From the sequence record PQ724393.1: DNA of 64,000 nucleotides. The stretch is one strand, 5' to 3'. Each line of letters begins with the position of its first letter. The first letter of the stretch is position 1. Below are positions 17,380 to 26,475 of this stretch, in pieces. This DNA comes from a phage. The position numbers and the translations under genes are program-made. Under the pieces are notes generated by a model. The model worked only from the letters and a program-made list of their open reading frames with translations, searched no databases and was not told where the DNA came from.

Positions 17380-19464
17380 TTACCCTTGGATGAATTTTTC
17401 TGGGATGTCATAGAGGTCTATGCATGAAGCCAAAAGAGGCAATACATCAAACCGTGTAGATTTAACAAATGAATCAAAAGATACAGGGCTTTCGGAAGTA
17501 TCGAAGTCATCTTGATATACGACCAACTCGCCGGTTTCCATTAGTACGTCACCATCATATACCACAGATTCTTGAAGCTCATCTGTTGTCATAACTTCAG
17601 CTTGGATGAGTTTTGTATTACTAGATGTTGTTCCATCATTATTAGAAGAATCTGTTATTTTATTAACTTTGACCATTAATCCACGCGGTAGAATAACTTC
17701 GGCTTCAGTTGCTATTCCGAGATTTCCTGGATATACGACATTAACTTTATGAGCCCCATCAATAGCCCATCCTATTTGAACTTTAACATAATCAGGATTT
17801 TCTTTATATGCTCTTATTTCATTAGGATTAATAGTTATTCCTTCTTCATTTTTATCGACTGTCAATTCATTGCGAACTTCCGGTTCTAAAAGACCAATAC
17901 CTGCGTGGGTAACACCAAAACGTCCAAAAATGATAGGAGTTAAAGAAGTAGATACAAAATTTCTGAAATAGAACACTTTATTTTTAACTAGTGCTTCGTA
18001 TATAGGAGCAGTCATACTCTGAGCACGATAAACTGTGATGCCCTCTGGTATACGGTCGCCATTTTCAAAAGCAGAATCCAAATTATTAACCGCGGATTCG
18101 ATATCTTTTTCGCTCATAACCTCATAGTTCTGAGGATTATAACGTCCTAAAAGAAGATTATTTATGTCTGTATATCCTGAACCACAATATTCTCTGATGC
18201 CGCGCTTTTGTGATGGGGTATATTTAGAGCCCTCACGAGCAATAGTAATATCGACCATAATACCGCCACCCACACCAGCAAAACTATATACACGTTTTTT
18301 AATGAACTTGGTCTTGGCGGCTTTCCACTTCGCATCGGTCAATTCATTCCAGAGGTCGTCAGGTTGGCCTTTACGAGTTTTGTTATGCCATGCCAGCCAT
18401 TCACCTTTGTATTCTTCGAAAACGGTATTAATAGCAGAGGCATATTTTTCTAGAGCTTTAACAGATGTCAAAGGTTCGTTTTTGATGGCCGTAAGAATTT
18501 TATTTTTAATTTTCTCTTGGATTTCACCTATACCGTGAAGAGGAAACATTTTATAATCGTAATGCAATTCTTCAGCCGTGCCTTCAGCCACTATATTAGC
18601 AACCTTATTTTTAGCCGCAGGAGAATTGTTATTAGTAACCATTTCCTGAGCCTCAGGGATTAATGGAACTGTTGCAGGTTTATTAAAATCTGCTGCAGTA
18701 GCTTCATATTTCTTAAACAATTCACTTTCATTACGATAAGATTCCAATGATTGGCTTGCTGCAATGGCGCGCCTAGAAATCTTAGTCTTGGTTATAACCA
18801 TTTTATCAGTGCGACGTTCTTCAACCTTAGCAATACTGCCGGCAATAGCAGTTTCTTTAGTAACCTGCACACCTTCTTTTTTGGAAATATAAACTTCACC
18901 GACATCAGAATCTACCTTAGTATACAATTCAGCATTAATTCCAGGCATACCTTTGATATCTTCGATATCAGCTTGTTTACGAACTACTAAGATGTAAGTA
19001 TGTTTACCGGTAAATTGGTACATAGCCGGAACCACTTTAAAACGTCCACCGGTTTTCTGTGCTACCAAACGTTGGATAATCCGTTGGACAATAGGTCCTT
19101 GTCCTTTCATTTTCTTGGTAGGAAAACGGAACATCACGGCATCCATACGAAGCTTTTTAACTTGGTCATAAACCACATCAAAAATAGTATTAATCGCATC
19201 TACAGGAGTAGGGCCAAGGCCACCTTTAAGTTCGGCTGGAGTACCTTTAGCCGATAAGCTCATTAAAATTACATGAGCATATTTATCGCCTAATTTAACT
19301 TGTTTGATTGCGTCGCCTTCAGAAGCATAAGAAACCATACGTGCTACTAATTGGGACTCTACGCCACCAATCTTCCAAATCTGCGGTACTTTAAGTTTAG
19401 GGTTCAAGTTTACTGTAGGCAGTGTGCCTTCGGACTCAAACACTTCATTTAATTGTTCGGTCAT
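17380..19464 (-). CDS. alt: Alt-like ADP-ribosyltransferase, paralogue 3
   Basis: 694 aa; N-terminal module about 65% identical to paralogues 1 and 2; ART motifs VYRAQ, FVSTSLTP, EAEVILPRG; C-terminal tail shared with paralogue 2. Confidence 0.85.
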   Translation of the reverse strand: MTEQLNEVFESEGTLPTVNLNPKLKVPQIWKIGGVESQLVARMVSYASEGDAIKQVKLGDKYAHVILMSLSAKGTPAELKGGLGPTPVDAINTIFDVVYDQVKKLRMDAVMFRFPTKKMKGQGPIVQRIIQRLVAQKTGGRFKVVPAMYQFTGKHTYILVVRKQADIEDIKGMPGINAELYTKVDSDVGEVYISKKEGVQVTKETAIAGSIAKVEERRTDKMVITKTKISRRAIAASQSLESYRNESELFKKYEATAADFNKPATVPLIPEAQEMVTNNNSPAAKNKVANIVAEGTAEELHYDYKMFPLHGIGEIQEKIKNKILTAIKNEPLTSVKALEKYASAINTVFEEYKGEWLAWHNKTRKGQPDDLWNELTDAKWKAAKTKFIKKRVYSFAGVGGGIMVDITIAREGSKYTPSQKRGIREYCGSGYTDINNLLLGRYNPQNYEVMSEKDIESAVNNLDSAFENGDRIPEGITVYRAQSMTAPIYEALVKNKVFYFRNFVSTSLTPIIFGRFGVTHAGIGLLEPEVRNELTVDKNEEGITINPNEIRAYKENPDYVKVQIGWAIDGAHKVNVVYPGNLGIATEAEVILPRGLMVKVNKITDSSNNDGTTSSNTKLIQAEVMTTDELQESVVYDGDVLMETGELVVYQDDFDTSESPVSFDSFVKSTRFDVLPLLASCIDLYDIPEKFIQG
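18760..19464 (-). repeat. direct repeat: conserved 5' module of alt paralogue 3 (more diverged)
   Basis: protein-level conservation of residues 1-235; approximate. Confidence 0.45.
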
Positions 19465-22970: not shown

Positions 22971-23257
22971 TAGAACCTCATCTGAAAGCCGTGCGATTTA
23001 ACATTACCACCATAGATGTCAGAGGTATTGACTTCACGGGCGACACTTGGGTCGATATTGATGTCACGGTTGAGCTTAGTGATTGCCAGGGTATCACGAC
23101 CATTAACAGTACGGAATTCTACTGGACATACAACATCGGCATAGGCCTTAATAGATTCACGAGTAGGTTGTTTGTCGGCAGGAACGTCTTTACCTGCTTT
23201 AGAGAAAACAACTTCACAGAAATTTTTACGAGTATCAAAATAAGTGGTCATAAACAT
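22970..23257 (-). CDS. hypothetical protein
   Basis: start moved to ATG with GAGGAAA RBS; 95 aa. Confidence 0.45.
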   Translation of the reverse strand: MFMTTYFDTRKNFCEVVFSKAGKDVPADKQPTRESIKAYADVVCPVEFRTVNGRDTLAITKLNRDINIDPSVAREVNTSDIYGGNVKSHGFQMRF

Positions 23258-23272
23258 AATATTTTCCTCAAA

Positions 23273-23288
23273 GGAGGCCGAAGCCTCC
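23273..23288 (-). other. UUCG-tetraloop stem-loop between genes
   Basis: ggaggccgaagcctcc; identical copy at 61533-61548; sits directly upstream of an RBS. Confidence 0.5.
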
Positions 23289-23298
23289 ATTTTTAAGA

Positions 23299-23664
23299 TT
23301 AGATATCGAATTCATTCAGAACTACATCAAAGATTGCTTCCAGGTGTTCAGGTTTAGCTCGGTTGCTCAGGATGTGACGAATCCAGGTTTTAACCAGAAG
23401 CTTACGATTAGAACCGTTCCAGCAAGGATGGGTACCTAAATCACGTTGACGGAAATCGTCATCTAAAGCGATTTTAAAAGTAGAACCTTCCATAGTGATT
23501 GAAACCGTAATACCATTTTCAAAGCGCATGTAAACGTAGTTAGGAGTCATGCACTGTTCGATTTCACACACTGTACCGTTTTCGTGTTTCCACAGGCAAA
23601 TAACTTCGGAAGAACCAGCGATACCGTTAGAAACATATTTACGTTCGAAGTTGATGTAGTTCAT
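23299..23664 (-). CDS. hypothetical protein
   Basis: start moved to ATG 23664 (MNYINFERK) with GGAGAA RBS; 121 aa. Confidence 0.45.
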   Translation of the reverse strand: MNYINFERKYVSNGIAGSSEVICLWKHENGTVCEIEQCMTPNYVYMRFENGITVSITMEGSTFKIALDDDFRQRDLGTHPCWNGSNRKLLVKTWIRHILSNRAKPEHLEAIFDVVLNEFDI

Positions 23665-23705
23665 TTTTATTCTCCAGTTTGTTTTCGTATTATTTGGTAC
23701 AGGTC

Positions 23706-23735
23706 TATAATAACACAACCTGTACCAAAGTAAAA
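23706..23735 (-). promoter_or_regulatory. early promoter cassette (variant -35)
   Basis: part of a ~50-bp promoter-leader unit nearly identical to 24068-24120. Confidence 0.4.
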
Positions 23736-23738
23736 CAT

Positions 23739-24072
23739 TTATTTCACAACATTCCAATTTTTCATATCAAGTTTACCAACTTTTTTCATCTGGGCAATCA
23801 GACGTTCAGCGCGTGTACGGGCATTAACGTAATAGAATTCACCAATTTTGTTTTCTTCAATACGACCAGTAATTACAGTTTTCAGTTCATAAATCCAACC
23901 TGTAAAGAAGTTGTGAAGCTCGATGGTAAATGTGAAATCAGTAACCCATACCTTCAGTTGTTTCAACTTCGATGATATCACCTTCAACTGCAGTCAGGAC
24001 CCACATGGTTTCTTGATATTCACCGTTGAAACATTTAGCTTTAACAGATGCATTCAGATTTACAGTTTTCAT
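23739..24072 (-). pseudogene. frameshift-interrupted early ORF (44-aa N-terminal frame plus ~70-aa C-terminal frame)
   Basis: ATG 24072 with RBS reads 44 codons to TGA at 23938-23940; the long downstream ORF to 23739 is in the +1 frame; both frames open between 23938 and 23996. Confidence 0.4.
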
Positions 24073-24112
24073 TTTATTCTCCAGTTTGTTTTCGTATTAT
24101 TTGGTACATGTC

Positions 24113-24143
24113 TATAGTATCATGCCTACCGGAGATGTACACC
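24113..24143 (-). promoter_or_regulatory. early promoter cassette (variant -35)
   Basis: same conserved cassette geometry as the other early promoters. Confidence 0.4.
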
Positions 24144-24151
24144 TTTTTTTA

Positions 24152-24187
24152 AGATTTAGAAACAAAAATGGGACTCCGAAGAGTCCC
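24152..24187 (-). terminator. intrinsic terminator
   Basis: hairpin gggactccgaagagtccc (UUCG loop on - strand) followed by AUUUUUGUU. Confidence 0.55.
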
Positions 24188-24192
24188 ATAAC

Positions 24193-24354
24193 TTATGCCT
24201 GAGGCTTACCAAAGCAAGCAGCATCTGCACGCAATACTGCACGAGCACGAGCTTGAAGCTTATCAACTACCTGATTGATACGCTTGTTGGACGCACGCTT
24301 GTAACCAGCGCGTTTAGAGGTACCGTCAACTACTTTAACTTCTTTCTTAGCCAT
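24193..24354 (-). CDS. 53-aa basic protein
   Basis: ATG 24354; MAKKEVKVVDGTSKRAGYKRASNKR...; followed by the terminator; below ORF-table cutoff. Confidence 0.35.
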   Translation of the reverse strand: MAKKEVKVVDGTSKRAGYKRASNKRINQVVDKLQARARAVLRADAACFGKPQA

Positions 24355-24562
24355 TTTTAAATCTCTTAAATTAGGATGCAGGACTTATTGGCGTTGCCTG
24401 CGCAAGCCCTCAAGGGGAACATAGGTTTCGGATATTTAACGACAGGATAACCATAAACCTCGTCATCATACCGACCACGGCTTAGACAGATAACCTTTTT
24501 CTGACGCGTGATAGTACAAAATACATTCAAGAGGTACACCGTAAAACTGTTGGGGTCTTAAA

Positions 24563-24592
24563 ACTATAATGATTCGCAAATCATTAATCAAA
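24563..24592 (-). promoter_or_regulatory. sigma70-like promoter (TTGATT-N17-TATAGT) downstream of rIII
   Basis: - strand reads TTGATTAATGATTTGCGAATCATTATAGT. Confidence 0.3.
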
Positions 24593-24617
24593 CAGTTCGA
24601 CGGCTCCTCGATTTAAT

Positions 24618-24866
24618 TTACTTCAGGGTAATAATAAAATGACGTACTGCTTTACGAGCTGCAGAAGCCAGAGGCTTAGCAAATTTCAGTTCATCTTTAG
24701 CTTCCAGTTCAGCAGCCAGAGTAGCCTGAGCTGGGTTCAGATGTTTGAAATAACGCAGGATTTCCAGTGCTTCGGCTTCAACATCAATAGATGCGCCGTA
24801 GTTTTCGTGACCGTTGTTCCAAGCGTTGCGTTGCAGTTCAAGAGCGTGATTCAGATGTTTGTTCAT
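24618..24866 (-). CDS. rIII: rIII lysis-inhibition accessory protein
   Basis: 82 aa; MNKHLNH.LELQRNAWNNGHENYGASIDVEAEALEILRYFKHLNPAQ matches T4 rIII as recalled. Confidence 0.85.
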   Translation of the reverse strand: MNKHLNHALELQRNAWNNGHENYGASIDVEAEALEILRYFKHLNPAQATLAAELEAKDELKFAKPLASAARKAVRHFIITLK

Positions 24867-25012
24867 TTTAAATTCTCAATTCGAGATAAAGATTGGCGGA
24901 CACGTTCTTCTGAATTTCACTTCCTTTCGGCAAGTCTCTCAGTTGTAGTCCACCGCTTAGGATTCTCCGGTTAACTAACTAGTCCGGCAGCCAATCCATA
25001 TTATTATTTATA

Positions 25013-25336
25013 TCACTTATAAAGACACGGAATAGCTTTATAGTGACAGGTAACGAATTTTTGTTTAATTTCTTTAGGTTGTTTAATACCTAATGCAACC
25101 AACGGATGAGGCACGTTAGCAATCTTACCAACAGGAAGTGGAGTCAAATCACCTACTTCACAAAAATCTTCAGGGACATCAGGTCCTACAGAATAAATTT
25201 CACAAAGTTCAGGGATTTCACCTTGATGAAGTTTGCCAATAACGATACCAGATGCAGTAGTTTCTTCATCGCCAGCTTGTTTTGGTTCGGAAACGAGAAT
25301 AACATATTCTCCGACCGCTTTAATAGGAAGTTCCAT
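25013..25336 (-). CDS. 31: gp31 co-chaperonin (GroES analogue)
   Basis: 107 aa; [18 protein letters not shown]...PELC...[20 protein letters not shown]...[23 protein letters not shown] matches T4 gp31. Confidence 0.9.
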
Positions 25337-25394
25337 ATTTAATCCATATTGTTTTGTTGATAGATTAATAATAACACGCTATTCTTAAAGCATA

Positions 25395-25694
25395 TTACAG
25401 GACAAGCAGAGTTTCGGTCTGAAGGCCGTTAATAGAAATCAGCTTATCGAAACGGAATGAGCGCCAATCATTAACCTTGGTATCAAATACTCTGATGTAA
25501 TTAACAGGTTCTTTATTGGCTTCAGGCCCAGGGGCCTGGACTTCTTTATATGGAAGCAGGTCTAAGTCACGTGTACAAGTCATACGACGGGCACTACCAT
25601 CAGCCTTTTCAAACAGAACTTCGTGAAAGCCTACAGACAAAATAGTCTTGACTTTTTCACGGAGACGAATTGTTTCTTGTTCGGTTAAAATCAT
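25395..25694 (-). CDS. hypothetical protein (31.1 position)
   Basis: 99-aa ORF. Confidence 0.45.
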   Translation of the reverse strand: MILTEQETIRLREKVKTILSVGFHEVLFEKADGSARRMTCTRDLDLLPYKEVQAPGPEANKEPVNYIRVFDTKVNDWRSFRFDKLISINGLQTETLLVL

Positions 25695-25696
25695 AA

Positions 25697-25930
25697 TTAT
25701 TCCAGAATAGTTTTAATAGTGGTTGCATTACGCTCTTTTAGAGCTCTTAATAGGCTATGGCAATTTTCAAGAATAGGTACTGTTTTGTAATTCATGTTGG
25801 CATAAACCCAATCAGATTTATAGTACGATTTCCAACGAGAGAAAAAGTACTTTTTGTATTCTACTGAATAGGCTACTAAGCTTTCACCTTTTGAATTCAG
25901 ACCTGAAAACTTAACTAGACGAAATTTCAT
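25697..25930 (-). CDS. hypothetical protein (31.2 position)
   Basis: 77-aa ORF. Confidence 0.4.
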   Translation of the reverse strand: MKFRLVKFSGLNSKGESLVAYSVEYKKYFFSRWKSYYKSDWVYANMNYKTVPILENCHSLLRALKERNATTIKTILE

Positions 25931-26475
25931 TATTCACCACAATAGTTTTGAATTGATTCCCAGTTCAGAGAACGGAGGCCAGTACGGTTATACTGGATAA
26001 CCTCAATGCCTGATTCACGGAGGATATCGTCCCACCCTTCAGGATTTCGGTCATAGAGTTCAGCATAAACCAGTGTTTTAATTCCGGACTGCGCAATAGA
26101 CTTAGCACAATCTGCACATGGGGACAGTGTCACATACATCGTAGCACCGTCAATAGAACTTCCTGTACGAGCTGCGAACAGGATAGCATTCAGTTCGGCA
26201 TGGATTTCATTTTTAGATGACCATGCAGCGTGAGCCATACGGTGTTCTTTAAGAAGAACAGATTTGTGCGACATCCGAGTTGGGTCATACACCACACGGG
26301 TCCAGTCCTGTTCCACAGCGTGGTCACAACAGTTAACACCACCGGACGGTGAACCATTATAGCCTGTAGAGATAATGCGACCATTCTTTTCAATAACCGC
26401 GCCCACTTTCCATGAACAACATTTTGATTCTTGAGAAATCAGATATGCAATCTGAAGGTATGTGCTTGCTTTCAT
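25930..26475 (-). CDS. cd: dCMP deaminase
   Basis: 181 aa; zinc-binding cytidine/dCMP deaminase motifs HAE...PCADC. Confidence 0.85.
   Translation of the reverse strand: MKASTYLQIAYLISQESKCCSWKVGAVIEKNGRIISTGYNGSPSGGVNCCDHAVEQDWTRVVYDPTRMSHKSVLLKEHRMAHAAWSSKNEIHAELNAILFAARTGSSIDGATMYVTLSPCADCAKSIAQSGIKTLVYAELYDRNPEGWDDILRESGIEVIQYNRTGLRSLNWESIQNYCGE

Follow-up and report, generated by a model that had tools for sequence, protein, structure and literature searches.

What is specified by the 263 nt that lie between genes rIII and 30.9 in a T-even phage? The window (the whole 64-kb stretch of DNA analysed) derives from a T-even phage of the Dhakavirus type, and the queried stretch is 99.9% identical to fDHCT2 and 98.6% identical to Bp7. 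On the minus strand, gene 31 (25336..25013) is followed by rIII (24866..24618), the gap (24355–24617), 30.9, a terminator, and gene 30.8. A first, sequence-only reading had called the packing unusually loose, and the gap does rank third in size among the 67 intergenic gaps annotated over 49 kb of the near-identical phage Bp7, but four conserved RNA modules fill it completely. The same reading spoke of a GC-rich leader, which the composition hardly bears out (40.3% GC in the gap vs 39.6% in the whole window, and between 34 and 46% in individual 100-nt windows). The gap matches 776 phage records, including T4, to which it is 75% identical over ~200 nt. Although T4 serves as the reference virulent phage, its homologous 244 nt (130541–130784 of AF158101) carry no annotation in the reference record, and no description of an RNA in the rIII–30.9 gap was found in the literature searched.

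To define the content of the gap, we compared 40 loci fetched via gp30.9 and 46 fetched via RIII, recognised modules by side-by-side reading of the gaps, and then mapped them by profile searches. In T-even-type loci with both genes, the gap always measures 120–416 nt. In the window it comprises, from 5′ to 3′, modules A, E, B, and C (hairpins h1 and h2), followed by the Shine-Dalgarno sequence and start codon of 30.9 (Table 1). Every module has its own closing helix, AU-rich linkers lie in between, and each occurs as a single copy in the 64-kb window, on the sense strand.

Table 1. Features of the gene 31–30.8 region in the window, listed in the direction of the minus strand
Feature	Coordinates	Strand	Basis
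Late-promoter box TATAAATA and structured 31–rIII leader with module G	24900..25012	−	Pattern search; module map; folding
rIII gene, 82 aa; upstream neighbour of the gap	24618..24866	−	ORF list; phrog_1457, E 1e-42; Bp7 annotation
Module A, long irregular hairpin, 91 nt	24524..24614	−	Alignment of 13 relatives
σ70-like match TTGATT-N17-TATAGT, inside module A	24563..24591	−	Scan
Module E, hairpin cassette	24472..24521	−	RNAalifold, 8 sequences
Module B, H-type pseudoknot	24421..24470	−	Alignment of 29 sequences, many genera
Module C, hairpin h1, GUUCCCCUUGAGGGCUUG, short, sequence-conserved	24403..24420	−	Motif in relatives
Module C, stem-loop h2, GCAGG (24401..24397)/CCUGC (24382..24378), 14-nt loop CAACGCCAAUAAGU	24378..24401	−	Stem variants
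30.9 translation-initiation region, Shine-Dalgarno AAGAG 24367..24363, AUG 24354..24352	24352..24367	−	Read from sequence
gp30.9, 53-aa basic protein	24193..24354	−	phrog_1427, E 4e-27
Intrinsic terminator after 30.9, 9-bp stem, UUCG loop, U tract	24158..24189	−	Terminator scan

Module B folds as an H-type pseudoknot. A 5′ flank, UAUGAUG, is followed by helix P1 (24464..24458 with 24446..24441, GAC(G)AGG/CCUGUC in the window), helix P2 (24452..24449 with 24427..24424, GGUU/AACC), and the A-rich loop 3 (24440..24428); in other genera P2 reaches up to 7 bp, for example GUUGGUU/AACCAAC. Among the 13 pairs of the 29-sequence alignment (six in P1 and seven in P2), eight are changed on both sides, four per helix, so that both helices of the pseudoknot carry compensatory changes. 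The covariation score is 0.363; shuffles gave 0.152, with none of 500 reaching the observed value, and slid partners gave no more than 0.148. The unpaired nucleotides GUU, GGUUAUC, and CGUUAAAUA are invariant. Pairing of the UAUGAUG flank with loop 3 was considered and dropped, because loop 3 varies without compensation.

Module B is present in every T-even-type locus with a gap among those examined, and it is confined to this spacer. Specifically, B matched 14 metagenomic contigs, and all 12 that retain a flanking gene place it between rIII and 30.9. A 16-base B pattern returned 120 loci from viral contigs, only 17 of them real, and the matches examined lie on contigs already recovered via rIII or 30.9. 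Furthermore, the B core was not found in any of 185,579 bacterial and archaeal genomes.

Module A is built from two helices (24609..24606 with 24534..24531 and 24604..24591 with 24551..24538) together with a hairpin at the apex (24586..24579 with 24574..24567). Across 13 close relatives, 98.8% of the cells of its 25 pairs are paired and five pairs are changed on both sides, a level reached in none of 500 shuffles; its folding z-score is −2.98, and inverted repeat I1 is also reported there. Several invariant G-U pairs of A would turn into C-A mismatches in RNA of the opposite strand, indicating that the structure belongs to the sense (minus-strand) RNA. Module E, with an outer stem (24514..24509 with 24477..24472) and an inner stem (24503..24500 with 24490..24487), has modest support, four of its 11 pairs being changed on both sides in the eight sequences.

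The two hairpins of module C are conserved in different ways. The h1 motif, GUWCCCYUNGAGGRCUUG, is nearly universal in the relatives, where its place ahead of h2, B, or D differs from phage to phage; it is conserved by sequence, not by covariation, and has one copy in the 64-kb window. By eye, h1 resembles the stem of lambda boxB, and a U-rich stretch in some relatives resembles boxA, an impression on which we base no claim. The h2 stem occurs in nine versions among the relatives, all of them fully standard-paired, and four of its five basal pairs change on both sides, as tabulated by script. In other genera the h2 loop is replaced by module G or other hairpins, and it is h2 (or G) that adjoins the ribosome-binding site of 30.9.

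Minimum-free-energy folding of the whole gap is not significant (z = −0.87), nor are the folding z-scores of B, C, and E taken alone, and the case for structure therefore rests on covariation, not on stability. The covariance analysis that the sequence-only reading had proposed reveals compensatory changes that are strong for A, B, and h2 and modest for E, and very probably the gap is a functional structured RNA of the sense strand. Of the two possibilities first raised, a structured leader or a small RNA, the structured leader is thus strongly supported in its conserved sense-strand structure, but a separate small-RNA gene fits poorly, as the gap appears to have neither a promoter nor a terminator of its own. 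Covariance models of Rfam 15 gave no match near the gathering score in positions 23000–26000 of the window or in eight related loci; the sole signal is a chance-level match to the S15 leader in a relative (E 0.86, 20.5 bits vs a gathering score of 39.5). ARAGORN found no tRNA or tmRNA. The rIII–30.9 RNA is not a member of any described family, and the cassette-like shuffling of folds in one spacer, described below, is unusual.

That the gap has no ORF, as first stated, holds only for ATG-started ORFs: a 57-aa GTG ORF and a 41-aa TTG ORF, both interrupted in T4 by 1-nt indels, can be opened mechanically, and a short peptide could start at the AUGAUG over module B; some depositors annotate a 'hypothetical protein' within the gap. 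It is very improbable that any of these encodes a small protein. Neither Pfam nor PHROG gives a match, three 1-nt indels separate T4 from the window within B alone, the T4 ORFs here differ in frame and length, and the substitutions track base-pairing, not codon positions. A leader peptide from the conserved UAUGAUG was rejected, since its frame and length are not constant between phages.

The sequence-only reading had also placed an internal promoter in the gap. The hexamers are present, matching the consensus at nine of 12 positions with 17-nt spacing, and the −10 element TATAGT is kept in 12 of 13 relatives. A working host-type promoter at this site would give a monocistronic 30.9 mRNA starting within module A, and such a transcript, lacking the 5′ half of A, could fold unlike the read-through RNA. 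There is precedent in T4, which uses alternative transcript starts to alter folding around ribosome-binding sites (lysozyme gene e and soc). However, promoter-like matches in the region occur at the frequency expected by chance (four found vs 4.3 expected from shuffles), and this one lies inside covarying helices. Specifically, the −35 element reads CTGATT, with three of six consensus positions, in 12 of 13 relatives, T4 included, and only the window has a U-A pair there; the variable base is one side of a compensated pair of module A, in which C pairs with G or A in the relatives, indicating that this position tracks the helix rather than the hexamer. The 17-nt 'spacer' is itself a perfect 8-bp hairpin that covaries, and in one relative (L008) it is altered by compensatory substitutions while the −10 element becomes TATGTT. 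Furthermore, in a Salmonella-phage relative only the base of A is retained, without any apical part, and module A is missing in most genera. A functional promoter is thus unlikely, and nothing in the comparison of relatives appears to favour a weak one.

If 30.9 is not transcribed from within the gap, it would be transcribed from upstream. A late-promoter box (25012..25005) lies upstream of rIII, the pattern search found no T4 late-promoter box within the rIII–30.9 gap, and the terminator scan found no terminator-like site separating the two genes; the simplest reading is therefore that rIII and 30.9 form one transcription unit, the box being the likely start of a late rIII–30.9 transcript. 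The 146-nt gap between gene 31 and rIII (24867–25012, minus strand) is structured as well, with a folding z-score of −2.49, a closing helix (I5) that pairs 24990–25001 with 24886–24897, module G at 24950..24900, and a small hairpin, UCUC/GAGA, over the rIII Shine-Dalgarno sequence.

Module G consists of a closing stem, UACAAC, a GAAA-capped hairpin, and GAAGAACGUG, followed by a small compensated hairpin that covers the Shine-Dalgarno sequence. This module stands before rIII in T4 and in Dhakavirus types, including this window, and before 30.9 in Klebsiella-phage types. The two genes thus share a design in which a large stem-loop with conserved internal loops (G or h2), and then a small Shine-Dalgarno hairpin, stand before either gene. 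In the relatives, the small hairpin that sequesters the 30.9 Shine-Dalgarno sequence shows compensatory changes; in the window it is weak.

Comparison across genera reveals that the spacer is modular. To the modules of the window, relatives add blocks D, F, and G, identified by profile searches, and H, identified by eye, and the order varies by genus (B-F-D-C-G, D-B-C, h1-B-hairpin, and others). The smallest spacers (126–166 nt) retain B, a stable hairpin adjacent to the ribosome-binding site, and mostly h1. At the junction of A and B, close relatives carry E, D, or nothing. Module D, ~150 nt and present in relatives only, in place of E (for example L004:1249–1383, L014:1233–1368, and L018:1188–1329), contains eight helices with 44 pairs, of which 24 are changed on both sides (96.5% paired); a 6-bp loop-loop (kissing) helix is 100% paired with three covarying pairs, and long unpaired stretches are invariant. 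Module D has no Rfam match, its 20-nt core is absent from the 185,579 bacterial and archaeal genomes, and it looks like a new complex-fold RNA class. By eye, module H reads CCCAC-stem-UGUACG-stem-GGUAAC with stems that differ compensatorily, and module F, seen in T4 too, reads GGWGAUUCRCUACCUUAGUGYG... and is possibly a small pseudoknot; H and F were seen in the spacers of L014, L016, L019, L022, L028, and L042.

In the more distant T4-like phages examined, the modules are absent. In two distant T4-like phages (L202 and L204), rIII stops at 1425 and a 44-aa 30.9 begins 9–10 nt later, with no modules in between and a UUCG-loop terminator behind it. In other distant T4-like phages, rIII is followed by a terminator or another gene, again with no modules; another lacks rIII and carries a 92-aa 30.9-like gene preceded by an ordinary early-type promoter. 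These arrangements indicate that neither rIII nor 30.9 needs the leader and that the structured spacer is limited to T-even-type phages. A distant gp30.9 homologue (L043) has a lysine/alanine-rich tail.

The 53-aa basic ORF noted at the outset is a conserved gene: the suggested profile search places its product in the phrog_1427 family, found in 1001 phage records whose names nearly all point to Enterobacterales hosts. gp30.9 carries 14 K+R vs 4 D+E, and an alignment of 41 cluster representatives has a conserved core around SKRAGYKRxSN, with S13, R15, A16, Y18, K19, R20, S22, and N23 invariant. Pfam yields no match for it and PDB yields matches at chance level only; neither database links it to a ribosomal-protein family. 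The AlphaFold2 model (mean pLDDT 69) has a disordered basic N-terminus and a single helix spanning residues 28–48, an architecture that fits a nucleic-acid-binding peptide but does not prove one.

As the sequence-only reading had proposed, the codon usage of 30.9 is of the highly expressed type. Scored against a list of E. coli-optimal codons, rIII (0.76) and 30.9 (0.73) have the highest optimal fractions of all genes in the window, above the maximum of 0.728 among its 52 ORFs of 120 aa or longer; such values would be expected of abundant products that may need control. The predicted UUCG-loop terminator directly past 30.9 is also present. Its stem-loop and T tract occupy 24189..24168, with five G-C pairs among the nine and TTTTTGTTTCT behind the loop and stem, and T4 has a homologous UUCG-loop hairpin and U tract at the equivalent place with a different stem sequence.

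What could the RNA do? With about even confidence, we propose that the gap is a cis-acting intercistronic leader that controls the translation of 30.9 or the stability of its message, perhaps through binding of gp30.9 to B and h1. In this model, the gap would be transcribed from upstream as part of an rIII–30.9 mRNA that ends at the UUCG-loop terminator, and its RNA would fold into four self-contained modules, namely A, E, the pseudoknot B, and C. The leader would uncouple the translation of 30.9 from that of rIII and would set the amount of gp30.9, or the survival of each half of the message. It may act through the stable stem-loop set against the 30.9 ribosome-binding site together with B and h1, which would serve as upstream structures for protein recognition or for blocking nucleases. 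In its most specific version, a small basic RNA-binding protein would recognise B and h1, the obvious candidate being gp30.9 itself, and such autoregulation would parallel that of ribosomal-protein operons and T4 gene 32.

The positions of the modules are those expected of a cis-acting leader: they lie on the sense strand, B always stands between rIII and 30.9, and h2 or G stands at the ribosome-binding site. Module G precedes two different genes while B is confined to one spacer, which we count in favour of a cis role. The T4-like contig L186 (1449–2233) may be counted likewise: it retains the leader together with the first ~15 codons of 30.9, an unrelated 208-aa ORF taking the place of the rest, so that the leader seems to behave as a unit. 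Against such a leader, the module order is not fixed between genera, which would be unusual for a single cis-regulatory fold, and D and E come and go like accessory cassettes in close relatives. The distant T4-like phages without modules further argue against a strictly necessary cis role.

These same properties suit the main rival, in which the modules are autonomous trans-acting RNAs or RNA domains that are processed out of the transcript, the spacer merely keeping and exchanging the cassettes; they might act as sponges for proteins, as decoys against host defence, or as units resembling ribozymes or riboswitches. Independent domains would account for the closing helix of each module and the AU-rich linkers, for the shuffling of order and content between genera, for the choice of E, D, or nothing at one junction, and for distant relatives that have both genes without any module; module D, with its eight helices, covarying kissing loop, and invariant unpaired stretches, is also more complex than a typical leader element. 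However, the universal module B is never found outside the rIII–30.9 spacer, the modules have no promoter or terminator of their own (the sole terminator lies past 30.9), they adjoin the 30.9 ribosome-binding site, and module G is the leader of two different genes. We regard trans action as possible but less probable than a cis role. Slightly less probable still is a related reading in which the spacer of T-even phages, T4 included, is an exchange site of autonomous RNA cassettes (B, h1, and optional D or E) that would represent new RNA classes with functions outside the mRNA that carries them, such as binding of a ribosomal or host-defence protein, ligand sensing, or catalysis.

Invariant unpaired nucleotides around covarying helices, in an element that always lies upstream of 30.9, also raise the question of whether one module, most likely the pseudoknot B, is a ligand-sensing riboswitch aptamer controlling 30.9. 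We consider this improbable. The distance from B to the 30.9 start codon ranges from about 60 to 250 nt among relatives, with other modules intervening, neither an expression platform nor an alternative pairing of B with the ribosome-binding site or terminator was found, and no Rfam riboswitch matches.

Returning to the cis-acting leader, the best inference by analogy is that it would work like the T4 gene 32 translational operator or the leaders of ribosomal-protein genes. Like the rIII–30.9 RNA, the gene 32 operator is a T-even mRNA leader in which a conserved H-type pseudoknot precedes a highly expressed gene, and for which autogenous control is proposed. By eye, the two pseudoknots show no sequence resemblance. 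In gene 32 an unstructured AU-rich tract extends from the pseudoknot to the ribosome-binding site, whereas B is followed by structured modules; B sits between two cistrons, and the gene 32 pseudoknot is bound by gp32, whereas no binding protein is known for B. The gene 32 pseudoknot operator is also absent from Rfam (PMC10690425). Ribosomal-protein leaders such as the S15 and S4 pseudoknots likewise stand directly before a small, very basic, highly expressed protein, but gp30.9 lacks a ribosomal-protein family match and the S15-leader signal in Rfam is at chance level and in a relative only. RIII itself has recently been reported to bind ribosomal protein S1 (PMC9409239).

Other T4 leaders offer partial parallels, among them the compensated Shine-Dalgarno hairpins before rIII and, in other genera, before 30.9, which recall those of genes e, soc, and 49. 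The leaders of these three genes hide the ribosome-binding site in read-through transcripts, and a late promoter within the hairpin makes it accessible; here, the rIII–30.9 gap has no late-promoter box and the 30.9 Shine-Dalgarno hairpin of the window is weak. T4-type genomes also contain mobile PeSL (promoter-early stem-loop) cassettes that flank variable ORFs, as reportedly described by Arbiol, Comeau and Krisch in 2010. PeSLs resemble the present modules in being short conserved non-coding cassettes shuffled at gene boundaries of T4-type genomes, but a PeSL is a stem-loop with an early promoter, whereas the rIII–30.9 modules are complex folds with no supported promoter, in one spacer.

If the rIII–30.9 RNA is functional, Rfam would lack at least one pseudoknot conserved throughout the T-even phages, together with several other folds of theirs. 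The locus would then open a testable case of post-transcriptional control in T4, offer a clue to what the uncharacterised basic protein gp30.9 does, and serve as an example of structured-RNA modules shuffled like gene cassettes.

The structured leader also bears on annotation, since several records either carry 30.9 too far upstream, into leader sequence, or place ORFs within the gap. The start of 30.9 differs among records, those of protein clusters P0015–P0021 included: the protein is 72 aa in M37882 (T4; L002, 1554–1772) and in RB14 (L003, 969–1187), and 58 aa in AF158101, while Klebsiella-phage entries of 63–69 aa begin at an AUG within the leader. The longer proteins, whose reading frames run through h2 or the Shine-Dalgarno hairpin, are probably over-extended. 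Some deposited gp30.9 proteins of 53–58 aa (H93, H117, H131, and H135; cluster P0018) are called '1,4-alpha-glucan branching enzyme', a label that is an annotation artefact given how small gp30.9 is.

Past the 30.9 terminator, at ~24113–24143 on the minus strand, the sequence reads GTGTAC-N17-TACTAT preceded by an A run, a site not listed by the consensus scan; it is probably the early promoter of 30.8, at the same position as GTTTAC-N17-TAGTAT in T4. Elsewhere, the Bp7 annotation (L211) leaves a 546-nt gap between rnlA and pseT.3 (18422–18969) and a 234-nt gap between cd and 31.1 (23068–23303), the latter corresponding to a 77-aa ORF of the window (25930..25697) that is unannotated in Bp7.
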